Below are positions 15,116-45,539 of a DNA stretch of 64,000 nt, piece after piece. Both the position numbers and the translations under genes were made by a program. The notes under the pieces were generated by a model. It was not told where the DNA came from. It worked only from the letters and a program-made list of their open reading frames with translations, and ran no database searches. The DNA lies in sequence record PX880099.1, one strand, 5' to 3'. Origin of the DNA: a phage. Each line of letters begins with the position of its first letter. Positions within the stretch are counted from its first letter, which is position 1.

Positions 15116-15144
15116 GAGAATACAGCAATGGTTTAGGAGTGGTT

Positions 15145-15816
15145 ATGAAAAAGTTTGTTGTTTACAGTCGTCTTTCTAAACAGAAAAAAGGTGAGGCACA
15201 ATATGGTATGGAGAGCCAAGAGAATGATATCCGTTACTTCTTAGACTCTGTGCCTGATGCGGAAGTTATTGGTCAATTTTCTGAATACTATTCTGGTAAG
15301 GGCGATTGGAAGCAACGTAAGGAACTGGTTAAAGCGGTTGAAATGTGTAAAGCTACCGGAGCAACTTTATTGGTAGCTAAAGTTGACCGCTTGGGTCGTA
15401 ACAACGCCTCCGTAGCAACTCTTCTGGAGATGATCGATGTTAAGATAGCCATCATGCCAGACGCAGATAAAATGGTTATACAGCTTCTATCTGTTCTGGC
15501 TGAACAAGAAGTTAGAGGTATTGCTGATCGTATTAAAAAGGGTCTTGCTGTAGCAAAAAGTAAAGGTGTTTTATTAGGTAGTGCTAATCCTAAAACTGCC
15601 GCTGCACGTAGAAAAGGAAAAATGGAATACAACTCTGTTAAAGCAGACGCTTTTGCAGAGACATTCCGTGAACGCTTGGAGATCCTTAGAGATTTAAATA
15701 CACCTTACAAAACTATTGCTGAAAAATTCAATAGTAAGAAAATAGCAACAGCACGTGGTGGTAAATGGGATGCTAAAACTGTTTCTCGTTTGTGTGCCAG
15801 ACTTAACATTAAATAG
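15145..15816 (+). CDS. serine recombinase (resolvase/invertase family)
   Basis: N-terminal catalytic motifs VVYSRLSKQKKGE...G.ESQ and LLVAKVDRLGRN; C-terminal recombinase-like segment GGKWDAKTVSRL. Confidence 0.8.
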   Translation: MKKFVVYSRLSKQKKGEAQYGMESQENDIRYFLDSVPDAEVIGQFSEYYSGKGDWKQRKELVKAVEMCKATGATLLVAKVDRLGRNNASVATLLEMIDVKIAIMPDADKMVIQLLSVLAEQEVRGIADRIKKGLAVAKSKGVLLGSANPKTAAARRKGKMEYNSVKADAFAETFRERLEILRDLNTPYKTIAEKFNSKKIATARGGKWDAKTVSRLCARLNIK

Positions 15817-22633: not shown

Positions 22634-23449
22634 TTATTTGTTTAAGTGGTCTTCGACCATTTTAATGAAACCTTCATTGCTGAAGGCTGTTGCAGCTTTT
22701 TCTCGGTAAACAAAAACTCCACGATCTTCATAGAGAAGTGTTTCTTCGTAATTAACTCCAGGGTTAACTACAACCATTTTTGTACCCATACTAAGCGCAG
22801 GGAATAATTCCCAATTAAAATTGATAACTTGGTTTGAACATCCTACTACTACAACCAAATCTTGCATGGTCAAAGTATCGAACAAGTGAGCCATATCTGC
22901 ATACAAAGGTGCAGCCTCACCAAAAAATACAACATTAGGCTTCACCCAGTTATAATCATCTATGTTTATACTATTGTAACCAATATCTACCAGTGTTTTG
23001 TAATCTCCAGGATGCATACGGTAAACTACTTCAGGAAGATATCCGTGCACGTGAATAACAGAATCTCTGTCTACACCTGCTCGCTCTAATAGATCATCAA
23101 CGTTTGTCGTCAAGTTTACTACTTGGTTAGGATATTCCTTAAACCACTTTGCTATTTGAATATGTGCAGCATTAGGTTGTACATCTTTAAGCTCAACACG
23201 TCTTTTGTTATAAAATTCGTGTGTTTTGGCATACAAATCCATACCGTTCTCGTCTACACCACCGACCACTGGAAGATCTGGAGATGTTCTAACACGATAA
23301 CCTGCTTGGAAAGCTCCAATATCGCAGACCTCTTCTAAATCATATTCTTCCCATAAGGCACGACCACTATCGGTGTCTGTTCGGAATGTTCTAATCCCAC
23401 TATCTGCACTTAAACCTGCACCGCTTACAAAAATCACTCGTCTTGGCAT
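22634..23449 (-). CDS. Sir2-family (sirtuin-like) protein
   Basis: VIFVSGAGLSADSGIRTFR (GAG..SGI.TFR), TTNVDDLLERAG (TQN.D.LHERAG-like), VIHVHG; no internal Zn-ribbon cysteines seen. Confidence 0.65.
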   Translation of the reverse strand: MPRRVIFVSGAGLSADSGIRTFRTDTDSGRALWEEYDLEEVCDIGAFQAGYRVRTSPDLPVVGGVDENGMDLYAKTHEFYNKRRVELKDVQPNAAHIQIAKWFKEYPNQVVNLTTNVDDLLERAGVDRDSVIHVHGYLPEVVYRMHPGDYKTLVDIGYNSINIDDYNWVKPNVVFFGEAAPLYADMAHLFDTLTMQDLVVVVGCSNQVINFNWELFPALSMGTKMVVVNPGVNYEETLLYEDRGVFVYREKAATAFSNEGFIKMVEDHLNK

Positions 23450-25709: not shown

Positions 25710-26651
25710 TTAATAACCTCCTTCAAAAGGCTTTACTACATGTTGATTAGCTTTAAAACGTTCAACATAGTCGTTTTCACCCATGTTTTCATATAGTTTA
25801 GTAACAACATAAAAGTTTTCCCAAGCATATTCCCTAAACCAACCACTAGTGATGGATGTGCAGACTTTAGATAAAGCCATTATAAAACTTTGCTTAGGGG
25901 TTGGACCTCCGATCTCTTCACCGAAAGGAATTTGTGAACGTTCCAAAGCCAAAACACACGCTTCTTCATAAACACCTAACAGGCGCACATGTTTTGGTTG
26001 AGCAAAAAACTTTTCTTTGCTGGTCATAACTTCACTTCCATCTTTCATATAAGATTTATATGCTGGAGCATCCATTACCGCGATTGCTTCATGGATAGAA
26101 TCATGATCATAAACATACGGAACCTCATCACCTTTAAAGAAGTCTTTACTTTTTACGTTTAAGTTTGGATGAGAGTAAGTGTATGTTTCTTTCTCACGCA
26201 ACTCATAAATACTCTTAAGATTTTCTGGGATCTTTGCGCCCAGTGATCGCATGAAATGAATATCTTTCATAGTTTTAAAGAAGTGAGGACTATCCTTTTT
26301 AAAACGATGACTCATTTTAAGAAGGTAGAGCACATCTAAAGGAGCAACAACGTGTCCAGCGTAAGTTCGACGAATATCATCAGAGTCTTCACAATAACTA
26401 ATCAAAGCTTCTGTGCTATCTCCTTGAGAAGCAATATCGTATTCCAAATGTGCACCAGCTATCATTTTGACATGGCCTTTGTTCCCTTTACGTTCTACAA
26501 GTTCAACAAACTCATCTTGAGAGAACATTTTTGATAATTCTTCCCACTCTTGTTCTGTACACAGGTAATCTAGATCTACACAAGGGCGATACAAGTCTTT
26601 TCCCATGTCCATAGCATGAATTTGTAATGCACGGCTACCAATTAACACCAT
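25710..26651 (-). CDS. hypothetical protein, possible nucleotidyltransferase-like N-terminus
   Basis: LIGSRAL...VDLD resembles GS...DxD; weak. Confidence 0.5.
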   Translation of the reverse strand: MVLIGSRALQIHAMDMGKDLYRPCVDLDYLCTEQEWEELSKMFSQDEFVELVERKGNKGHVKMIAGAHLEYDIASQGDSTEALISYCEDSDDIRRTYAGHVVAPLDVLYLLKMSHRFKKDSPHFFKTMKDIHFMRSLGAKIPENLKSIYELREKETYTYSHPNLNVKSKDFFKGDEVPYVYDHDSIHEAIAVMDAPAYKSYMKDGSEVMTSKEKFFAQPKHVRLLGVYEEACVLALERSQIPFGEEIGGPTPKQSFIMALSKVCTSITSGWFREYAWENFYVVTKLYENMGENDYVERFKANQHVVKPFEGGY

Positions 26652-32709: not shown

Positions 32710-33402
32710 TTAAATAGCGGTTCCTTCGAAATCCGCCACATTTACGAGATTAATATTTTCAGATTTAGAAGTCAAGTTGTTTTCTGCAACAGATTTTTCT
32801 TCAGTATCCGCCTCGTTACCTGCCACGTTACGAGGTTCTTCTTCACCGTAGGGATTACCGAATTTCAAAAGATTGATTAATTCTTCTTTGGAGAAGTTTT
32901 CTAAATCATCGTCTGTTAATTCAATAATCTCGTCTTGTTCTTCAATAAATGTTTCACCACCAGAAAAAGCATCTCGCTTTTTAGCTACTTCCATAGCCTG
33001 TTCTGGTGTTGCCCCTGCATCAAGAGCAGCTAAAGCAAAGTCTGACCCACTCCCCACTGCATAATATTCTTCATCAATCGGATATGCACGTGTTGGGTTG
33101 TTACCTTCGTGCAGGAAAATACGTCCGTCTGGATGAACAACAAGTGCAATAAACTCTTCATCTTCTTTGTCTGGATCAGAATGAATCATCAAACCAGGGA
33201 CAGCATCGCGTGCTGCTTCGCACTGTAGATTTTGTTCAAACCATTGAAAGAAAGAAAGCACGGAGGTCAGACGACCAGCACCACCTACAAGGTAATCTCC
33301 AATTTTTCGGACCTTTTTGAAATTAATAGAATCTACACGTCCACCAAAAGTTACCTTACCATCACTCAAAATCTTATTTTTGGTTGCAATAATTGTCGTC
33401 AC
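32710..33402 (-). CDS. HslV-like Ntn-hydrolase peptidase (proteasome beta-type) with acidic C-terminal extension
   Basis: MTTIIATKN (Thr right after Met), GGAG, AVGSGSDFALAAL resemble HslV TTIV...GFAGG...AIGSGG..A.AAA. Confidence 0.6.
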   Translation of the reverse strand: MTTIIATKNKILSDGKVTFGGRVDSINFKKVRKIGDYLVGGAGRLTSVLSFFQWFEQNLQCEAARDAVPGLMIHSDPDKEDEEFIALVVHPDGRIFLHEGNNPTRAYPIDEEYYAVGSGSDFALAALDAGATPEQAMEVAKKRDAFSGGETFIEEQDEIIELTDDDLENFSKEELINLLKFGNPYGEEEPRNVAGNEADTEEKSVAENNLTSKSENINLVNVADFEGTAI

Positions 33403-35396: not shown

Positions 35397-35657
35397 TTAC
35401 TCCGCAATTTGAGCCATGAGATCACGCAGTTCGGTAAAACCGCCTACGTATGTTACCTCCCCGTTCACTTCAGACAGAATTTGTGGAAATGTGCGTGGAG
35501 GAACTCCGGTAAGATCAACAACTGTTTTAGTCATTGATTCTAAATCATAGTCTTGGTCAAGACTTAAATATTCAAACTGTTTATTGCGCATAGTCAATAG
35601 TTGTTTTGACATTTCACAAAATTGACAGTTAGGTTTACCAAAAATTACAAATTCCAT
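35397..35657 (-). CDS. glutaredoxin (thioredoxin-fold)
   Basis: FGKPNCQFCEMSK CxxC active-site-like; 86 aa; adjacent to rml and nrd genes. Confidence 0.7.
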   Translation of the reverse strand: MEFVIFGKPNCQFCEMSKQLLTMRNKQFEYLSLDQDYDLESMTKTVVDLTGVPPRTFPQILSEVNGEVTYVGGFTELRDLMAQIAE

Positions 35658-36499
35658 TACCTCTCCTTATTAAGTAATACTGCTAAAGACTGTTCAATAC
35701 CTTTATTTAAATCTGATTTTGTAAGATAGTGACTGGTTACTAGTTGTGACTTCACCGGACGTGCTGCTGGAGCATTATAGGTTGAAGCTGATACCGCCGA
35801 TATCTTAACAGGTTCTGGCATCTGTGTCAAGATCTTTTCCGCAAACTCCGCCCAAGAAATAAGATGGCTTCCTGCAAAATGGTAAGTCTTAACAGACCTT
35901 GACCAACCTGTTTTTAATACTTCAAAAATAGCTTCTGCTAAATCTGGAGCATATGTTGGACAAGAGAACTGATCAGCAACAATAATAAAATCACGTTGTC
36001 CATCATTATAGCGAGACAACATGGTTTTTAGAAAGTTATTTCCAAATTCGCTATATACCGAGGCTGTTCGAATAATATATGCATTTGGGTTAACTCCTCG
36101 CACCATTTTTTCACCAAGTTCTTTCGTATACCCATAATTGTTTATTGGGTTAGGTGTAGTATCTTCAAAAATAGGATGAGAATAATTAAAAATATAGTCT
36201 GTGGAAATATGCACAAAATCAATTTTAAGTTTGCTGCACACTGCCGCAATATTTGCAGGGCCATAAGCATTAACAGCCAAAGCAGTAGCAAAATCTTGTT
36301 CGGCTTTATCTACAGCCGTATAAGCGGCGCAATTAATAACACCATCTACATAATCTTCAATAATAGCGTTTCGCACAGCTTCAAAATTTGTAATATCTAC
36401 ACGTTCTTTAGGATAAATTAAAGATACATTTGCAGGGGCAACTTTACGTAAAGCTTGTCCCAGTTGTCCATTACCACCCAATACCAAATATGTTAGCAT
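35657..36499 (-). CDS. rmlD: dTDP-4-dehydrorhamnose reductase
   Basis: N-terminal YLVLGGNGQLG Rossmann motif; 280 aa; ATGA-coupled to rmlC. Confidence 0.8.
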   Translation of the reverse strand: MLTYLVLGGNGQLGQALRKVAPANVSLIYPKERVDITNFEAVRNAIIEDYVDGVINCAAYTAVDKAEQDFATALAVNAYGPANIAAVCSKLKIDFVHISTDYIFNYSHPIFEDTTPNPINNYGYTKELGEKMVRGVNPNAYIIRTASVYSEFGNNFLKTMLSRYNDGQRDFIIVADQFSCPTYAPDLAEAIFEVLKTGWSRSVKTYHFAGSHLISWAEFAEKILTQMPEPVKISAVSASTYNAPAARPVKSQLVTSHYLTKSDLNKGIEQSLAVLLNKER

Positions 36500-37059
36500 A
36501 CACCCTCGCTACGTAACTGTTGAAAAGATTTAGCCATTGCATCTTTTGTTGATAGGATAGGTTTAAAACCTTCATCAAAAATCATATCGAAGCCCCAATC
36601 GATCCCTATATCAGGATCATCCCAACGTAAACTTTGTTCACTAGAAGGGTCGTATGGAGTTGTGCATTTGTATTCAAAGATAGCATCCATACTCAAAACT
36701 ATAAAACCATGTGCCAAACCAGGTGGAAGCCAAAACTGCGTATGGTGTCGTGCACGAAGAACAACACCGTCCCAAGCACCGTAAGTAGGACTATCTTTAC
36801 GTAAGTCTACAGCGAAATCCAATACTTCACCACTTACACAACGAACAAGCTTACCTTGCGGATTATTTGTTTGAAAGTGCATTCCTCGCAAAACACCGAA
36901 GTTTGATTTAGACATGTTATCTTGAACGAAAGTTTGTCTACCAATAATATCTTCGTATTTTTGTTCATTATATGTTTCTAAAAAGAAACCACGGTCATCT
37001 TTATAAACGTCTGGTTTGATAATTACCGCACCTTCAATTTTTGTTTTTTCTACTTTCAT
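36493..37059 (-). CDS. rmlC: dTDP-4-dehydrorhamnose 3,5-epimerase
   Basis: [25 protein letters not shown]; start at ATG 37059 overlapping rmlA stop. Confidence 0.85.
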
Positions 37060-37934
37060 TTTCCCTCCGCTAATTTGAGTAGGTATTGCCCGTACTCTGT
37101 TTTCTTCAGTGAGTTTCCATGATAGACCAAAGTCTCTAAAGAAATCCACCCTTTTTTGAAAGCAATTTCTTCCAGGCACGCAATCTTCAATCCTTGACAG
37201 TTCTCAATAGTCTGCACGAATTGACCAGCTTCCATCAGACTGGCGTGTGTTCCTGTGTCAAGCCAAGTAAATCCTCGTCCGAGAACTTCTACTTGTAACT
37301 TCCTGTCTTCGAGGTAGCTGCGATTGATATCGGTGATCTCCAGTTCTCCACGCGCGGAAGGGGTTACTTCTAATGCACGTTGAATAACAGAGTTATCATA
37401 GAAATACAAACCTGTGACAGCATAATCTGATTTAGGATTTTCAGGTTTCTCTTCAATAGAAATAACTTGACGATTACTCCCAAATTCAACCACACCGAAT
37501 CGTTCAGGATCTTTCACCAAACACCCGAAGATACAAGCTCCGCCCCAAACATCTACCATCTCACTAGCGTTAATCAGTAGTTTACCAAAGCTTTGTCCGA
37601 AGAACAGGTTGTCACCTAAAATAAGAGCAACAGAGTCTTCTCCGATAAAATCTTTACCGATGATGAAAGCGTCCGCAAGACCTCGTGGCTCGGATTGGAT
37701 TGCGTAAGTGAGTTTTATCCCAAACATAGACCCATCTCCAAGAAGATGCTCAAAGTCTTCCTGATCGCCTGGTGTGGTGATGATTAAGATATCCTTAATG
37801 TCAGCCAACATCAATACCGATAAAGGGTAGTAGATCATGGGTTTGTCATACACAGGGAGCAATTGCTTGCTCACACTGCGTGTTACCGGATGAAGGCGGG
37901 TTCCACTTCCTCCCGCCAAAATAATACCTTTCAT
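37056..37934 (-). CDS. rmlA: glucose-1-phosphate thymidylyltransferase
   Basis: [39 protein letters not shown]. Confidence 0.9.
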
Positions 37935-37942
37935 AACCCTCC

Positions 37943-38935
37943 TTAAATCTTCTCACTCCACCATTGAGGGTTGTTTAAGTACCATTCAATCGTTGAGTAG
38001 AGATCTTGTTCAAATGTAGAGTTTGCACTCCAACCCAGTTCAGACTCTATTTTAGAAGGATTGATTTCATAACGCAAGTCATGTCCTTTACGATCTTCAA
38101 CAAAAGTTATCAAGTTGGAAGAAGGGTAGGTTCCTGCTTCTGGATGTACAGCATCCATGTAGTCACAAACCATATAGATGATCTCCATATTGGTTTTGGG
38201 ATTACGTGTTCCAACATTATACGTTTGACCTGGTTCTCCACCTGTTGCCACTTGAAGAATAGCTCGCGCATGATCCTCAACAAAAAGCCAGTCTCGCACC
38301 TGATCGCCTTTACCATACACCGGAATCTCTTTATTCGTCAAGATACTTGTGATGATTTTTGGGATCAGCTTTTCTGGATGTTGATAAGGTCCAAAGTTAT
38401 TGGAGCAGTTGGTTATCACAACAGGTAAACCGTAGGTACGGTACCAAGCTTTCACAAGATGGTCAGATGCTGCCTTAGACGCACTGTACGGGCTTGAAGG
38501 GGCATAAGCTGTCTCTTCGGTAAAGGGAACGCCAGAGTCTGCCATATCGCCGTACACTTCGTCTGTGGAGACGTGTACGAACATCTTCAGTTTATTTTTT
38601 GGGAGGAGCCTTGCAGCTTCCAATAAATTGTATGTGCCAATAATATTGGAGTCGATGAAAACTCGTGGATTCTTGATAGAATTATCCACATGACTCTCTG
38701 CCGCTAAGTGAATGATGAAATCGGGATTGCACTCTACTACTAAACTTTTGACCTGGGTTTCGTTTGCCAAATCTGTTATGCTTAGTTTAACGTGAGTGAT
38801 ATCGCCTACATTCTCAATATCTGCTGCATAGCCCATCTTATCAACGACAAAAACTTCGTTATTGGGATCTTGACAAAGAGAGCGCACCACGGCACTCCCA
38901 ATAAAACCAAGACCACCTGTTACCAGATAGCGCAT
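37943..38935 (-). CDS. rmlB: dTDP-glucose 4,6-dehydratase
   Basis: [30 protein letters not shown] (YxxxK), HVSTDEVYG. Confidence 0.9.
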
Positions 38936-38944
38936 CAGTTCTCC

Positions 38945-39271
38945 TTACCAGACATGTTGAGAAATAATAGTTTCCGTTTTAATGTTATATTTTTCAAGTA
39001 GCTTTGCATAGGCTTCTTTTGCATTCTCATTCAATTGCTCAAGATCTACAGCTATGCTTCCTTCTCCGCCTTCTAAATCAAGGCCATATATGCAATAAGA
39101 CTCATCCGCATCGTAGAAAGGAGAGATGCGGCTTAAGTCAAGACCTTCTTGTAAGAACCAGTTAAAATCTCCGTCAAATTCTTCTTCAATTCTAGGATCT
39201 TCTCCTACAGCCTCTTCCCACTTATTAAAAGGTGCACCCTGTAACATACGCCATTCGATATCAATACCCAT
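38945..39271 (-). CDS. hypothetical acidic protein (108 aa)
   Basis: ORF. Confidence 0.5.
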   Translation of the reverse strand: MGIDIEWRMLQGAPFNKWEEAVGEDPRIEEEFDGDFNWFLQEGLDLSRISPFYDADESYCIYGLDLEGGEGSIAVDLEQLNENAKEAYAKLLEKYNIKTETIISQHVW

Positions 39272-39567: not shown

Positions 39568-39776
39568 TATTCCTCCTTAATTATTTCAAATTTGGCAACA
39601 CCATTTACAATAATATGACCACAAGACATAACTCCTAGCCAAGGATCGCCGTTTTTCTTCAGGCGTTTACCGAATACATCACAAAAACCATTCTTCATTT
39701 CAGAGGCTTCATAAGAAGCCCCTTTATCAAAAACGTCTTTGAATGTGTCAATTATACCAACACATTTCAAAATCAT
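39567..39776 (-). CDS. hypothetical protein (69 aa)
   Basis: ATGA-coupled to nrdB. Confidence 0.5.
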   Translation of the reverse strand: MILKCVGIIDTFKDVFDKGASYEASEMKNGFCDVFGKRLKKNGDPWLGVMSCGHIIVNGVAKFEIIKEE

Positions 39777-40861
39777 TCGAAGTCAAGCTCCTCATCATCA
39801 GAGAGATCTTTGTTAGCTGAATTCAATTTGTAGTTAGTTAACTGAATCTCTTGGGCTGCTGACTGAATCAAATCAGGATTCAACCATTTTTCCATCCAAG
39901 CTAAAGGGCTATGTTTAGGTGCTTTAAACTTGGCTTTCATTTTCAATCGACGATAAATAGGAGCAGCATTGAAATAAACCCACTGTTTAGACAATTCGGC
40001 GTTAAGACCTACAATAAAACGACCTTCACTAAACAGGTAGTCACACCACTGTTCCTCTTGTTCAACAACAGTGTCGAGGATCAAAGTCAACTCTTCAATA
40101 TTGTCTTCGTAAATTTTACGCCAAATTGGGTCATGCATCAATGCATCAATTACAGCATAATCCATCTTAACATGCAAGATTTCATCTAGCATAATTTTCT
40201 GGATCAGTTTACAAGCCCCAACAAACAGTTGTTGTTCTGCCATAGCAAAAGTAGCAGAGAAGGAAGATATAAACTGAATACCTTCTAATCCAATTAGGGC
40301 TACCATCCCTTTAAGAATCAGCAATCGAAGTTCATCGTTAGCTTCAATCAATCCTAGAGCATACTTATGACCAGCTTCTTCCAACTGACCCATGATATCA
40401 GCAATGATACCCATACGATTGAAAATTTTATCATTAATCATAATCTGATTGATGACTTCGATTGGATCTGGAGTACATTGACGGATTATTTCAGAATACG
40501 TTAACGCATGGAGAACTTCCATTTCACTCTGCTTCATCATCATAGCACAGGCTTCATTGTTACTCAAGAATGGAGAGAACAAAGTGATGATTGATTTTGC
40601 AAGAGAATCATTTTCCCATTGGAACGATAAGTTTTTAATCATAACATCATAGTTGTTTTTAGAACAAGCTACGAAATCTTTACGTGTCTGATCCAGATTG
40701 ACTTCATTCTCATCCCAATCTTGTGCTTTTTGAAGTTTGTAGAGTTTGTGCATCTCTGGATAAGTTACGTTAACAGAATCAAAGATCCCTAATTGTTCCC
40801 CTAAAAATACTGGATATTTTCCTGTTTTGTAAACTTCATTGTGTAAATTAATTGCTGCCAT
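39773..40861 (-). CDS. nrdB: ribonucleotide reductase small (beta) subunit, class I
   Basis: LIGLEGIQFISSFSATFAMAE, acidic C-terminal tail DDEELDFE. Confidence 0.85.
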   Translation of the reverse strand: MAAINLHNEVYKTGKYPVFLGEQLGIFDSVNVTYPEMHKLYKLQKAQDWDENEVNLDQTRKDFVACSKNNYDVMIKNLSFQWENDSLAKSIITLFSPFLSNNEACAMMMKQSEMEVLHALTYSEIIRQCTPDPIEVINQIMINDKIFNRMGIIADIMGQLEEAGHKYALGLIEANDELRLLILKGMVALIGLEGIQFISSFSATFAMAEQQLFVGACKLIQKIMLDEILHVKMDYAVIDALMHDPIWRKIYEDNIEELTLILDTVVEQEEQWCDYLFSEGRFIVGLNAELSKQWVYFNAAPIYRRLKMKAKFKAPKHSPLAWMEKWLNPDLIQSAAQEIQLTNYKLNSANKDLSDDEELDFE

Positions 40862-40882: not shown

Positions 40883-40898
40883 AGGGGCCGAAGCCCCT
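40883..40898 (-). other. conserved hairpin AGGGGCCGAAGCCCCT (copy 3 of 3)
   Basis: Between nrdA stop and nrdB start. Confidence 0.6.
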
Positions 40899-40905
40899 AG
40901 TTTCA

Positions 40906-43146
40906 TCACATCTTGCAAGCTTCACAACCACCATCAGAATCTTCTTGTGCTAAAGAGTCTGCTGATTTTGTTCTACTATTAAGGTAATACAATGATTTGC
41001 CACCCAGTCTAGCAAAATTCAGAATAAACTGCATCTCAGCTTTCACGGATAAACGTCCACCTACCAATTTAGAATAATCTAGCCAAGAATCACAAGAAAT
41101 TCCTTGGTCAGTAAACTTGGTAAAGATACCATACATTTCTGCAAGATCTTTAGCCGGAGTATCCCAGGCGGATTGGTAGAACATTTTCAGTTTTTCGTAG
41201 TCTGGAACAATAAATAATACACTACCTTTCTGACTCTGTTTATACATAATAGTATCACGAACAGGATACAAAGAGTTAGTAGTATTGCTTACCAAACTGC
41301 TGGACTCATTAGGTGCAATAGCAGCCAATACACTGTTACGGATACCACCTTGTTCAATGATTTCAGCACGTAAGCCTTCCCAGTCCATTTTAAGATCAAA
41401 ATTACCGATACTATCTACTGTTTTAGCATAGGTGTCAATTGGTAGCCAACCTTGAGGCCATTTGGTCTTATCGATCCATTCCGCATTACCTTTTTCCTTA
41501 GCCAGACGCAGAGAGGCTTTTGCCAACCAAAAGTAATGACGTTCTGCAAGTTCATGCATTAATTTTTTAGCATAAGCATCTGAATAATTTACAAAATTAC
41601 TTGCCAAGTAATGCGCTAAGTTTGTAATACCTACACCAATAGATCTACGTGCTTTAGCAGTTATTTCGTTATGTTTAAATGGATAATCCATTGTTTCAAT
41701 AACGTTGTCAATTGTCAATACAGTGTAGTATGCAACATCCTCATATTCTTCAGGTAATACACGACCAGCAACAATAGAAGATAAGAAGCATAAAGCCAAT
41801 TCTTGATCTTCTGTATTCTCACCAGTAAAGAGATCCGGCATACTGTGGAAAGCTTTAGTTGGCAAGAAGATCTCTTGACACAGGTTTGATTGATACACCG
41901 TATCCAGGAAAGGTGTATGGTTGTTAACGTTGTCAGCAAAGAACATGTAAATACGTCCTGTTTCTGCACGTTGAACAATAATCTCTGTCAGAAGATCACG
42001 AGCCTTAACAAATTTTTTCTTAATGCGTCGTCTACTTACTTTGTCATAAACTGCATCAAACTCTTCTTCACTTTTATATAAAGCTTCATAAAGTTCAGGA
42101 GCATCATCACAACTAACTAACATCCAGTCTTCGTTTTTTGCTGCTCGACGCAAGAACGAACGGTTAACAACAATAGAATAATCTAGTTTATCCACTCGTT
42201 TATCTATAGGTGTTGTTGGATTCTTCAGTCGAATCAGATCGTCGAAGTCTGGTTCAAGTATGGTAAAGGTAACTGTAGCACTACCTCCACGGCTTGCTTG
42301 CTTTGAAGCTCCAACACTATCTTCCATCCATTTCAGATACGGAAGAAGACCACCGTGAATAATACGATTATTCTTAACACCTTGACCTGTGGCACGAGTT
42401 TGAAGATTAACACCAATACCTGCGTTATTCAACGTATACTCATGAGCTAAGTAATTAGCAATGGCTAAAGATTCTGCCGTATCGTCTGCACGGAATAAAC
42501 AACAAGACGCACTTCCTTTGATTGGAGTTCGTAGAGTTGTCAGATACGGCGATGGCAGATTAATCTTAAGATCGCTAACATAAGTATAAAGTTTTTTAAT
42601 ATCTTCTATACGGCGTTCTTTTGGTTGGATCTCCATAACCTTCATTGCGACACCAATGAAAAGAAACTGTGGAGACTCATGCACCACATCGTTTACTGCA
42701 TCTCGAATAAGATATTTATCCACCATTTGACGTAAAACAGAATAACCATAAGTTAGATTTTTATTATGCTTTACAATCTTACCGATTTCTTTGATCTCTT
42801 CATCAGTATAATCCATTTTAGCCCAATGACCACGTTCTACCATATCATGATAAAAGGTATTCAGTGAAGGGATACTGTGGTATCCCCCATGAGCCTGTTT
42901 GTAAATCATACCTAGAAGAAGTCTTCCTGCCATATCACTGTAAGCTTGTGTTTTCTTGTCAATACACGCTGCAATCATTGCTTTATGCAGATCACGTGTA
43001 GACACACCGTCATAACACCGCTTCACAGCTTCTAATTCAATTTCAGACCAGTTTAGTTTACCTGCTGCAAATTCCGACCACTTGCGAAGTTTTTCTGGGT
43101 TAAACTCCTCTGTCTTACCATTAGATTTAGTTACAAAACGAATCAA
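40906..43146 (-). CDS. nrdA: ribonucleoside-diphosphate reductase large (alpha) subunit
   Basis: 746 aa; SNLCQEIFLPT active-site region; C-terminal CEACKM. Confidence 0.9.
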   Translation of the reverse strand: MIRFVTKSNGKTEEFNPEKLRKWSEFAAGKLNWSEIELEAVKRCYDGVSTRDLHKAMIAACIDKKTQAYSDMAGRLLLGMIYKQAHGGYHSIPSLNTFYHDMVERGHWAKMDYTDEEIKEIGKIVKHNKNLTYGYSVLRQMVDKYLIRDAVNDVVHESPQFLFIGVAMKVMEIQPKERRIEDIKKLYTYVSDLKINLPSPYLTTLRTPIKGSASCCLFRADDTAESLAIANYLAHEYTLNNAGIGVNLQTRATGQGVKNNRIIHGGLLPYLKWMEDSVGASKQASRGGSATVTFTILEPDFDDLIRLKNPTTPIDKRVDKLDYSIVVNRSFLRRAAKNEDWMLVSCDDAPELYEALYKSEEEFDAVYDKVSRRRIKKKFVKARDLLTEIIVQRAETGRIYMFFADNVNNHTPFLDTVYQSNLCQEIFLPTKAFHSMPDLFTGENTEDQELALCFLSSIVAGRVLPEEYEDVAYYTVLTIDNVIETMDYPFKHNEITAKARRSIGVGITNLAHYLASNFVNYSDAYAKKLMHELAERHYFWLAKASLRLAKEKGNAEWIDKTKWPQGWLPIDTYAKTVDSIGNFDLKMDWEGLRAEIIEQGGIRNSVLAAIAPNESSSLVSNTTNSLYPVRDTIMYKQSQKGSVLFIVPDYEKLKMFYQSAWDTPAKDLAEMYGIFTKFTDQGISCDSWLDYSKLVGGRLSVKAEMQFILNFARLGGKSLYYLNSRTKSADSLAQEDSDGGCEACKM

Positions 43147-43922: not shown

Positions 43923-44921
43923 TCACCATTTAGTATGATTTGTTAAAAGTTGACGATGTTGAATCCAACCTTTGAAATTGCCAGACCAAAACTTACCATT
44001 ACGATCTACATGGGTAATACCTGGTTCCCAAGAGTTAAAATCCCAAGGAGCATTGATAAACAAATCTTCAAAACAGTTCTCTCCGTATTGTTCGCATGTT
44101 TCTTGCATTGGGGTGGCTTGATGTTCAAACGGAGAAGCATGAACCTTGCGCCCAGTCAGCAAACGACCATAGATATCTAAAGCTTTATCTTTAGTTGCAT
44201 TTAAACGACGATAGCTAACCTGTGCACAACACGAAGCTGAAATAGCTTTGGCTTCTTCCAAAGTAAGCACGACAACTTCTCCAGATTCATCTTGAACGTA
44301 GTATCCACCAAAAACAAAATGATCGTCACCTTCTGTGCCAATATTATCATAGAAATGGTCTACATAAGGTGTGTGCCATTGCCCTGGTTTCAGCACTTCT
44401 GGTGTAGATTCTTCATACTCTTTGTGCATCTCTTTAGCCAAAGCTTCGATAGTAGGATCGGCTTCTTTGTCATCACGTAGCCACCAGAAATTTTCATATT
44501 CTGTTGCTGTCAGAACTGTTTTAATTCGTTGGAAAGGTTCCAGAAGACGGTTTGCAACTTGTTTGTGGTACCCTGCCAAAGAGAATTCTTCTGCAAAACG
44601 TGCTGCACTAAGCGCGGCAAGATCCCACCACTCTTGAGCAGTATAACCTGCATCAATAAGAGCGTCATGATCAACACCTTTATCCTGCATACCAGGTTGG
44701 TTAGCCCCAAAACGATAAGGACGAGCAGGCTGATTTCGCACCATTTCGATCAGTGTTTTAACAGGTATAGCACGGCTAGAAGCAGCGTTACGACTGAATA
44801 GGCGGTGAGTCATCAGTTCTGAATGAATAATACGTGGATATTCAAGTTCGAAAGTTACAATCTCTTTTCCGTCTTCAGTGATGGAATGTGCAATAATACT
44901 AGCCGAAATCTGTTTTGTCAT
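43923..44921 (-). CDS. thyX: flavin-dependent thymidylate synthase
   Basis: ThyX motif THRLFSRNAASSRA (RHR...S...S.R). Confidence 0.8.
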   Translation of the reverse strand: MTKQISASIIAHSITEDGKEIVTFELEYPRIIHSELMTHRLFSRNAASSRAIPVKTLIEMVRNQPARPYRFGANQPGMQDKGVDHDALIDAGYTAQEWWDLAALSAARFAEEFSLAGYHKQVANRLLEPFQRIKTVLTATEYENFWWLRDDKEADPTIEALAKEMHKEYEESTPEVLKPGQWHTPYVDHFYDNIGTEGDDHFVFGGYYVQDESGEVVVLTLEEAKAISASCCAQVSYRRLNATKDKALDIYGRLLTGRKVHASPFEHQATPMQETCEQYGENCFEDLFINAPWDFNSWEPGITHVDRNGKFWSGNFKGWIQHRQLLTNHTKW

Positions 44922-44930
44922 TTTTTCTCC

Positions 44931-45539
44931 TTAGTTTTTAAAATTGTTCAAAGTGTTAAAAACATCCAAACATGTTAGCCACTGATCTTCTAAACCTGTG
45001 ATCACAACATTTGGTTTTTTCTTTAGTTCTTCTAGATGGTTATCTTTATAAGGCGTATTAAAATATATTTTAACCACTTCATCTGGAAAATATAGTAGGT
45101 TATCAGCCCTGTCATCTATTGCTATATCACAAGGCAATAAATATTTTTCTTTCGTAGCAAAAAAGCCGTTACCAGATCCTTTGCTAAAATCAATCGTATC
45201 TAATGTTCTTAAAACATGCTTATGTTTAGAACTTAAGTGACCACCTTTTGTCACACTTGCGATCAAAAGATTGCTACCTTTCCTTGAAACATACTTTAAG
45301 AAATCTGGCATACCTGGAACAAAACCCATTGTATCATAGAGATGAGGATTATCCAGAAATCCGTAAGGATCTATATTGAACTCCTCCCTGAAACCAGGAA
45401 AGTAGTTGGTAAGATCATAGTCTGCATTTTTTGTGAATGTGTCTATCTTAACACCAAGTCCACTAATCTTATTCAACCATTCTAACCAAGCAACATCTAA
45501 TGGAGCCACAACTAAATCCCAATCACATACTATCTGCAT
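44931..45539 (-). CDS. HAD-like 5'(3')-deoxyribonucleotidase (putative)
   Basis: N-terminal IVCDWDLVVAPLD resembles the D-x-D-x-V-[LV]-A HAD motif I; about 200 aa. Confidence 0.4.
   Translation of the reverse strand: MQIVCDWDLVVAPLDVAWLEWLNKISGLGVKIDTFTKNADYDLTNYFPGFREEFNIDPYGFLDNPHLYDTMGFVPGMPDFLKYVSRKGSNLLIASVTKGGHLSSKHKHVLRTLDTIDFSKGSGNGFFATKEKYLLPCDIAIDDRADNLLYFPDEVVKIYFNTPYKDNHLEELKKKPNVVITGLEDQWLTCLDVFNTLNNFKN

Follow-up and report, generated by a model that had tools for sequence, protein, structure and literature searches.

Among the closest described systems to the one analysed here are the virion O-glycosylation cassettes of mycobacteriophages, gp108-110 of Che8 and gp35-38 of Corndog (Freeman et al. 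2023, as cited in PMC12363180 and PMC11256854); PMC12363180, on the authority of that study, describes Che8 gp110 and Corndog gp38 as essential to the glycosylation of capsids. The subject of this study is a cluster of four rml genes for the synthesis of dTDP-L-rhamnose, which occupies positions 35657-38935 of a 64,000-nucleotide stretch of phage DNA (record PX880099.1; the whole stretch is called the window below). We found no literature report of virion glycosylation in coliphages. In mycobacteriophages a glycan coat lowers antibody binding, and among viruses of eukaryotes Mimivirus synthesizes UDP-L-rhamnose and chlorovirus PBCV-1 has capsid glycans made by A064R.

The rml segment matched 71 GenBank phage records, nine of them with an identity of at least 99% (the best being TSP7_1, at 99.9%). 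Essentially all of these records belong to Phapecoctavirus (Stephanstirmvirinae), the phAPEC8-like virulent E. coli myophages, so that a preliminary description of the window, made from the sequence alone, was right to assign the cluster to a virulent phage. It was less fortunate in presenting the cluster as a new observation, since the four genes carry names in the annotation of nearly all 71 records and have been annotated since phAPEC8 (2012). Olsen et al. (2020) termed their location in the DNA-metabolism region "peculiar" and, by comparison with T4-type phages, proposed rhamnose glycosylation of hydroxymethylated nucleotides (PMC7552041). Maffei et al. (2021) described phages that are "exceptionally susceptible" to restriction-modification (RM) despite a "putative dTDP glycosylation machinery" (PMC8594841). 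Both the cluster and its most striking interpretation, DNA glycosylation, are already published. The cluster itself is of a textbook kind, and its purpose has been a puzzle for more than a decade, in which the published guess of DNA glycosylation conflicts with the restriction data; our literature search found no report of a functional test of rml or glycosyltransferase (GT) genes in Phapecoctavirus, Justusliebigvirus or phi92. New here are the third of the records that have only rmlC and rmlD, the co-occurrence of the cluster with GTs, and the position of a related GT module beside or inside the head-gene block of temperate phages. The explanation we favour, with a probability of roughly 0.45, is that the rml genes provide the donor for four GTs which the phage itself encodes and which act on virion proteins.

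The rml genes and their distribution

Identity of the Rml proteins was judged by the curated cut-offs of the NCBIfam equivalog models, with Pfam domains as a second check. All four genes lie on the minus strand. RmlB, the dTDP-glucose 4,6-dehydratase (38935..37943, 330 amino acids), scored 429.8 bits against TIGR01181 (cut-off 365.1) and also matched PF16363/PF01370, and RmlA, the glucose-1-phosphate thymidylyltransferase (37934..37056, 292 amino acids), scored 461 bits against TIGR01207 (cut-off 360.65) and also matched PF00483. RmlC, the dTDP-4-dehydrorhamnose 3,5-epimerase (37059..36493, 188 amino acids), reached 225 bits against TIGR01221 (cut-off 155.75). RmlD, the dTDP-4-dehydrorhamnose reductase (36499..35657, 280 amino acids), exceeded the TIGR01214 cut-off of 224.05 bits by a small margin, with 237.7 bits, and scored 247.7 bits against PF04321. 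The equivalog E values ranged from 1e-67 to 1e-139, and four matches at equivalog level in neighbouring, coupled open reading frames (ORFs) are not due to chance.

The residues expected of active enzymes are in place. The RmlB translation has GGLGFIG (GxxGxxG), TDE and YSASK (YxxxK), and in RmlA the G-G-x-G-T-R-L loop is found as GGSGTRL at residues 8-14. Aligned with RmlC of S. enterica (1DZR, E 4e-56), the phage RmlC keeps the catalytic His, Lys, Tyr and Asp within the conserved blocks GMHFQ, QGKLVRC, FEYK and STKDA. RmlD keeps STDY and YGYTK (YxxxK) in alignment with RfbD of B. anthracis (3SC6, E 4e-44), and is nearer to such Firmicute structures than to RmlD of Salmonella (E 2e-29). The start of rmlC is the ATG at 37059, 5 nucleotides after the Shine-Dalgarno sequence GGAGGG, where the program-made ORF list had used an upstream GTG. 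The rmlA stop and this start share the sequence ATGA, 7 nucleotides are common to rmlC and rmlD, and the rmlD stop overlaps the start of a glutaredoxin gene. The preliminary description had thus placed the four genes exactly to the base, in the right order and with the right identities, and the coupling it reported is visible in these overlaps. Going by scores, motifs and gene layout, the cluster almost certainly encodes an intact, functional dTDP-L-rhamnose pathway.

The two halves of the cluster differ in their distribution. The whole rml query was matched in 46 of the 71 records, and about 25 of the 71 matched its positions 1-1412 only, that is, rmlD and rmlC; these include ESCO37, Mt1B1_P17, nepoznato, anhysbys, ZCKP1 and SF1-1 and show a clean deletion of rmlB and rmlA. 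In anhysbys, rmlC directly adjoins the gene for the 108-amino-acid protein that precedes rmlB in the window, which marks the boundary of the indel. At this locus Klebsiella phage KP2025, a more distant relative, is likewise limited to rmlC-rmlD. The absence of rmlA and rmlB from ESCO37 had been stated before (PMC10269720); a second rmlA/rmlB pair in ESCO5, which we had suspected from the locus tags in that paper, proved to be the same locus, the paper's point being the absence in ESCO37. By tblastn, RmlD was found in 157 phage records, comprising all Phapecoctavirus searched together with Justusliebigvirus and Klebsiella relatives, and rmlC stands beside rmlD in every listed record that carries annotation. 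The G+C content at third codon positions (GC3) is 0.40-0.41 in rmlB and rmlA, 0.23-0.25 in rmlC and rmlD and 0.27-0.34 in neighbouring genes, a difference that fits a separate history of rmlB/rmlA (37056-38935) from that of rmlC/rmlD (35657-37059). By this distribution, rmlC-rmlD is the conserved core of the cluster and rmlB-rmlA its optional, accessory half.

Host genomes offer an explanation for the optional half. All 5426 complete E. coli genomes contain DNA 60-80% identical to the rmlB/rmlA part, and identity to these genomes, again 60-80%, extends over the rmlB/rmlA/rmlC part only. All Enterobacterales make dTDP-4-keto-6-deoxyglucose through RffH and RffG for enterobacterial common antigen (ECA), so that rffG and rffH are universal, and RmlC and RmlD are restricted to serotypes with rhamnose-containing O-antigens. 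The species-wide match to rmlB/rmlA fits the universal rffG/rffH genes. Since the host makes the substrate, dTDP-4-keto-6-deoxyglucose, the formation of dTDP-L-rhamnose in any host would require only RmlC and RmlD from the phage. Because these two are always kept and rmlA and rmlB are lost in about a third of the records, it would be the end product that matters to the phage, not the drainage of a pool.

The cluster is also old in its place. The order nrdB, small ORFs, rmlB-A-C-D, grx, lysozyme, phoH is shared with Justusliebigvirus PaulScherrer. Between Phapecoctavirus and Justusliebigvirus the amino-acid identity is 54-71% for the Rml proteins and 56% for glutaredoxin, against 76-85% for lysozyme, PhoH, the HslV-like peptidase and a methyltransferase; the 108-amino-acid protein is 92.6% identical between the window and PaulScherrer, with 54-85% for the proteins that flank it. 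Given the nucleotide identity of 60-80% to hosts and the synteny with Justusliebigvirus, we read the cluster as an old resident of the phage lineage and not as a recent, host-derived moron, which bears out the earlier view that it is no O-antigen moron.

Some of the matching records carry odd host labels. MG065650, MG065645 and MG065689 ('Campylobacter phage' B15, A145 and A110a) and OP562383 ('Acinetobacter phage' ABPW7) have either 97-99% identity to E. coli Phapecoctavirus or a match to Justusliebigvirus in these genes, and their host names look like the outcome of contamination or mis-assignment. A greater distance separates 'Pseudomonas phage' PsgM04F (OR584014), with 87% identity, and here the host label may be genuine.

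Glycosyltransferases in relatives and in temperate phages

No GT had been recognized in the window, and we found none either: a Pfam scan of about 34 window ORFs (the larger ones and the small ORFs beside the cluster) gave no glycosyltransferase or TET/JBP family, and tblastn of the window with the GTs of relatives gave no match. The window extends from the early region of the genome to the terminase gene. The search beyond it, which the preliminary description had proposed, was run on relatives and was productive: in EF1-1, with 99.1% identity in the rml region, four adjacent GT-annotated genes lie at 112301-115445, about 75 kb from rml, between the primase/helicase and endolysin genes. Two of the products, gp189 and gp190 (314-315 amino acids), have weak GT-B/Glyco_trans_1 matches and are paralogues, with 36-39% identity as judged by comparison with shared homologues. 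The other two are small GT-A proteins, gp191 (227 amino acids) with invariant FxFDDD and YGxED motifs and gp192 (187 amino acids) with a DxD motif. Transmembrane-like segments were found in none of the four, which marks them as soluble.

The four-GT cluster recurs with unchanged order and neighbours in Justusliebigvirus and in a dozen IMG/VR contigs, and the tblastn classes for RmlD and gp191 agree. An identity of at least 95% for both proteins was found in 65 records; in six records of phiWec179 type RmlD is 60-80% and gp191 80-90% identical, and the corresponding values in about 56 Justusliebigvirus records are 54% and about 75%. Escherichia-named records present in both lists number 107. 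The major capsid protein, at least 80% identical in 133 records, agrees with this co-occurrence, and phages whose capsid is of Vequintavirus type (about 42% identity) do not occur among the matches listed for RmlD or gp191. Judged from these searches, the rml genes and the four GTs travel together across the subfamily. Klebsiella phage KP2025 has, in its early region, an additional stand-alone gp191-like GT with 34.7% identity (PP919962, 94204-94836; locus L045, 6205-6837).

Structure prediction was less informative about the acceptor. The gp190 model (predicted local distance difference test score 94.5) has a generic GT4-like GT-B fold, and the structural neighbours of the GT models include PglA/PglH, PimA, BshA, GtfA, WaaG, WaaB and WbnH, with the T4 DNA glucosyltransferases AGT and BGT at mid-list or lower; the two good models do not separate protein, DNA and lipid acceptors. 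Sequence searches of the PDB with gp191, gp190 and their family profiles gave nothing meaningful.

The genomic position of homologues was more telling. The gp191 family is narrow, with 17 clusters among 5.8 billion proteins, compared with 209 clusters for the gp190 family, and the nominally bacterial members are prophage genes. In Enterobacter huaxiensis the order is Q, lysis, gp192-like, an RmlB-like short-chain dehydrogenase/reductase (SDR), gp191-like, gp190-like, HNH, TerS, TerL, protease/capsid and portal, an arrangement found without the SDR in a prophage of Serratia sp. M24T3. In Pseudomonas silvicola and relatives, gp191-like and gp190-like genes precede TerS, TerL, portal and capsid; in a lambdoid contig the pair lies between lysis and HNH-terminase genes; and in a myovirus type a GT pair is directly upstream of TerL. 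In a Pseudomonas alliivorans prophage and an HK97-like contig, which are of unrelated types (loci L044 and L049), a three-gene module stands between the genes for the major capsid protein and the head-tail connector. A divergent myovirus contig has an RmlB-like SDR embedded in the GT module beside the primase/helicase gene, an arrangement that ties sugar-nucleotide enzymes to the module.

IMG/VR was scanned for relatives of the capsids of two module-bearing phages. Many of the sibling phages carry at the same slot another pair, namely a soluble GT of 485 amino acids (GT485) and a GT of 196 amino acids (GT196). Among phages with capsids 57-69% identical, the position upstream of HNH-TerS-TerL is taken by a gp192/191/190-type module, by the GT485-GT196 pair, or by nothing, and one phage has the pair inserted between its genes for capsid and portal. 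In the cultured E. coli phage LMessi (PP925823; locus L173, 34962-36991) the order is lysis, GT485, GT196, HNH, terminase, portal, protease and HK97-like capsid. The GT485-GT196 cassette was also found at L052 (3288-5329), L069 (3244-5303), L071 (10017-12137) and L135 (1223-3252); in HK97-like temperate phages of E. coli and relatives it stands either between lysis and HNH/terminase genes or right after the capsid gene.

This pair connects the module to mycobacteriophages. The large GT of cluster F mycobacteriophages and GT485 share 43-44% identity over the whole of GT485, which has matches in 568 Mycobacterium phage records, and GT196 of LMessi is 34% identical to Che8 gp110 (E 1e-23) and 33% identical to Corndog gp38 (E 3e-18). 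In Corndog, too, the GT cassette immediately precedes the head gene. The gp191 family matches GT485/SG4 gp102 along its entire length, but within the N-terminal domain of the latter only (hhalign probability 99.2%, E 1.1e-19, 197 columns). By homology and position, the Stephanstirmvirinae module would be a relative of, and a positional alternative to, the virion-glycosylation cassette.

Acceptor and purpose of the pathway

The explanation we favour can be set out as follows. Four phage enzymes would convert glucose-1-phosphate and dTTP to dTDP-L-rhamnose in any E. coli host, with RmlC and RmlD indispensable and RmlA and RmlB a dispensable booster on top of the host's RffH and RffG. The dTDP-L-rhamnose would be consumed by the four soluble phage GTs, two GT-B paralogues and two small GT-A enzymes, which would build a rhamnose-containing glycan on an acceptor chosen by the phage. 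One or more virion proteins are the likeliest acceptor, which would give a glycan coat like that of glycosylated mycobacteriophages. That the four-enzyme pathway makes a rhamnose glycan on virion proteins, and so would be the first case of virion glycosylation in phages of Gram-negative bacteria, is a tentative proposal to which we give somewhat less than even odds.

Other loci bear on the nature of the acceptor. In Burkholderia dolosa (locus L011, 3025-8440) and Trinickia symbiotica (locus L013, 3742-10026), a gp190 homologue with 41-45% identity occurs at a conserved non-phage locus, behind a gene for an invasin/intimin-type inverse autotransporter and one for a protein of 555-571 amino acids with no Pfam match. 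This context hints at protein acceptors, and the locus may be an adhesin glycosylation system. In the P. silvicola prophage and two related Pseudomonas prophages, a 143-amino-acid protein is encoded directly upstream of the GT pair (locus L008, 8871-9302; homologues in L027 and L028); by eye it has an immunoglobulin-like (Big_2-type) segment and Thr/Ala-rich stretches, and it could be a candidate acceptor. Several module-bearing phages have Ser/Thr-rich C-terminal tails (ANTTT, ANPTT, TSSSTT, SGSGPTT, KGSFSSGS), which are lacking in the P. silvicola and L034 types and marginal in EF1-1 (KLTTA). As acceptor sites these tails were rejected, for in a capsid-anchored scan they follow lineage and not GT presence, L122 and L123 having a tail without GT.

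Several observations weigh against virion proteins as the acceptor, or against rhamnose as the sugar. The rml genes lie with nrdAB, grx and thyX, and the GTs with primase/helicase, DNA polymerase and adenine methyltransferase genes, with no structural genes near. The capsid, tube, sheath and decoration proteins of EF1-1 have no obvious Ser/Thr-rich tails. By our analysis, the link to mycobacteriophages, whose system is proven, is two homology steps removed: neither Che8 gp110 nor Corndog gp38 resembles any of gp189-gp192, the gp191 and gp190 family profiles gave no score directly against Che8 and Corndog proteins, and the homology of gp191 to the mycobacteriophage cassette is visible only through the 485-amino-acid GT of SG4/LMessi type. 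Because rml/GT co-occurrence is confined to one lineage, it would represent a single evolutionary event. Finally, because RmlD clears its cut-off narrowly, its product could alternatively be the C4 epimer dTDP-6-deoxy-L-talose.

The location of both gene clusters among replication and nucleotide genes is what first suggested a role in DNA, in which the GTs would transfer rhamnose to a modified base, as in T4, and so evade restriction or CRISPR. This is the role proposed in print (PMC7552041), and it accords with the presence of rml in a nucleotide-metabolism block (grx, nrdAB, a ThyX-like gene and an NT5C-like nucleotidase) and of the GTs beside genes for primase/helicase, DNA polymerase I and an N6-adenine methyltransferase. 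We also followed up a weak match of gp191 to PF20691, the TET-associated glycosyltransferase family (E 1e-3; 19.4 bits, cut-off 27.5). This lead was dropped as evidence for a DNA role: the match is sub-threshold, spans 37 residues round the DxD motif and is also given by the Che8-type GT485, so that it reflects generic GT-A similarity. The published restriction data argue against bulk DNA modification: the phages found exceptionally susceptible to RM systems are phi92-like and carry the same machinery (PMC8594841), and in a collection of 42 phages HincII resistance was seen in only three isolates (ESCO10, ESCO47 and ESCO58), of which ESCO47 and ESCO58 are Tevenvirinae and none is placed in Phapecoctavirus or Justusliebigvirus (PMC10269720). 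A ThyA-type hydroxymethylase or TET/JBP protein was found neither in the roughly 34 window ORFs scanned nor in the annotation of EF1-1 and ESCO13, annotation being what was consulted outside the window. The head-gene cluster of a temperate phage, where homologous modules reside, would moreover be an odd site for DNA modification, and we regard this role as improbable, though sparse modification at specific sequences may occur. Still less probable, to the point of being remote, is a sink or regulator of dTTP or host dTDP-sugars with no glycan product, which might for instance starve the host's synthesis of O-antigen or ECA. RmlA does use dTTP, and nrdB and grx are neighbours with which the cluster probably shares a transcript. 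Such a sink, however, requires RmlA, whose gene is lost together with rmlB in about 25 of 71 records that keep rmlC and rmlD; a phage that invests in NrdAB, NrdDG and ThyX for dTTP is unlikely to waste it; and the strict co-occurrence with four GTs would be left unexplained.

The strongest competitor, though we consider it unlikely, is that the GTs rhamnosylate envelope glycans of the host (lipopolysaccharide (LPS) core, ECA or O-antigen intermediates on undecaprenyl phosphate) or a host protein, whether to block superinfection, to keep progeny from sticking to debris or to hijack host physiology. LPS and O-antigens are built by enzymes of the GT4-type GT-B and GT2-type GT-A classes, and PglA/PglH, WaaG, WaaB, WbnH and PimA are among the structural neighbours; genes among replication and nucleotide functions are typically expressed early or in mid-infection; ECA or core LPS are reported as receptors of related phages (PMC8594841); and the Burkholderia homologues of gp190 adjoin a bacterial surface adhesin. 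Against remodelling of the host stands the annotation, which has no initiating transferase, flippase, polymerase or membrane-anchored Gtr-type protein, and the solubility of all four GTs. In temperate phages the module follows the lysis genes, and a Q-type antiterminator precedes it in at least two cases; from this late position it would not be expressed in lysogens, so that seroconversion of the classical kind is excluded in these phages. Where it is inserted between capsid and connector genes, its site points to the virion and not to host molecules. The preliminary description had named glycosylation of virion proteins, DNA hypermodification and drainage of host dTDP-sugar pools as possible roles; the first has gained indirect support from the GT module near head genes elsewhere, and the other two are disfavoured by the restriction sensitivity and by the records that lack rmlA and rmlB, respectively.

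Should virion glycosylation be confirmed, coliphages used in therapy cocktails, in which Phapecoctaviruses are frequent, would bear a self-made glycan coat, with consequences for antibody evasion and the pharmacokinetics of therapeutic phages. The gp192/191/190 module and the Che8-type cassette would then be mobile virion-glycosylation modules in phages of Enterobacteria and Pseudomonas, and glycan-coated virions would be widespread in proteobacterial phages.

Neighbouring genes and comparison with known systems

As the preliminary description had it, the cluster is embedded in a nucleotide-metabolism block, between grx and nrdB, and the neighbours it named (glutaredoxin, NrdAB and ThyX) are present by Pfam. 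The glutaredoxin gene (35397..35657, minus strand; PF00462, E 1.8e-9) is assigned to the same putative transcription unit as the rml genes because its start overlaps the rmlD stop, and the rmlD-grx adjacency is also found in PaulScherrer and KP2025. Directly upstream of rmlB is the gene for the 108-amino-acid protein (38945..39271, minus strand), which is acidic, of unknown function and without a Pfam match, followed further upstream by NrdB (39773-40861) and NrdA (40906-43146). Between nrdA and nrdB lies a terminator-like, G+C-rich hairpin on the minus strand (40883..40898; AGGGGCTTCGGCCCCT then TTTTATTGAG), and between this hairpin and 35397 the same strand showed no further terminator-like site with a G+C-rich stem. 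The hairpin is the likely upstream limit of a transcription unit running from nrdB through rmlBACD to grx, within which the rml genes would probably be co-transcribed with nrdB and grx.

The ThyX-like protein (43923-44921, minus strand) is long, at 332 amino acids, and its match to Thy1 (35 bits, cut-off 24.8) is partial, covering only the C-terminal two thirds of the Pfam model; its gene is adjoined by one for an NT5C-type 5'-deoxynucleotidase (44931-45539, minus strand). Other genes of the window, at 22634-23449 (minus), 25710-26651 (minus), 15139-15816 (plus) and 32710-33402 (minus), include those for a SIR2-family protein, a DUF7277/DUF7275 protein (254 bits), a serine resolvase and a protein annotated in relatives as an HslV-family peptidase.

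Compared with bacterial RmlABCD (RfbBDAC) of E. coli and Salmonella, the phage cluster has the same four enzyme families with the checked catalytic residues intact. The order of the enterobacterial genes is B-D-A-C, and that of the phage is B-A-C-D; the phage genes stand between grx and nrdB and not, as in bacteria, in a polysaccharide cluster, and rmlB and rmlA are optional. DNA glucosylation by T4 resembles the present case in that a virulent myophage carries GT-fold enzymes among DNA-metabolism genes. Its donor is UDP-glucose, whereas here it would be a dTDP-6-deoxyhexose; no hydroxymethylase or TET protein was found here; and, unlike in T4-type systems, the DNA of this phage group is cut by RM systems in vivo and by HincII in vitro. 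Gtr-type O-antigen morons are likewise phage-borne glycosylation genes, with sugars that include those of rhamnose-containing O-antigens, but they encode membrane proteins expressed from prophages, whereas here soluble GTs of a virulent phage keep a fixed core-genome position across genera. The marks of a lysogenic-conversion moron, namely a temperate phage, a membrane Gtr/Wzy protein and expression from a prophage, are absent from this phage. The rhamnose and capsid-glycan systems of giant viruses differ in belonging to viruses of eukaryotes and in using UDP- or GDP-sugar routes, and have no sequence-level relationship to the phage genes. The mycobacteriophage cassettes are phage-encoded sets of soluble GTs, as in Stephanstirmvirinae. 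The mycobacteriophage-type cassette stands beside head genes, whereas the Stephanstirmvirinae GTs lie among replication genes, and the latter phages add two GT-B enzymes and would make their own nucleotide sugar.

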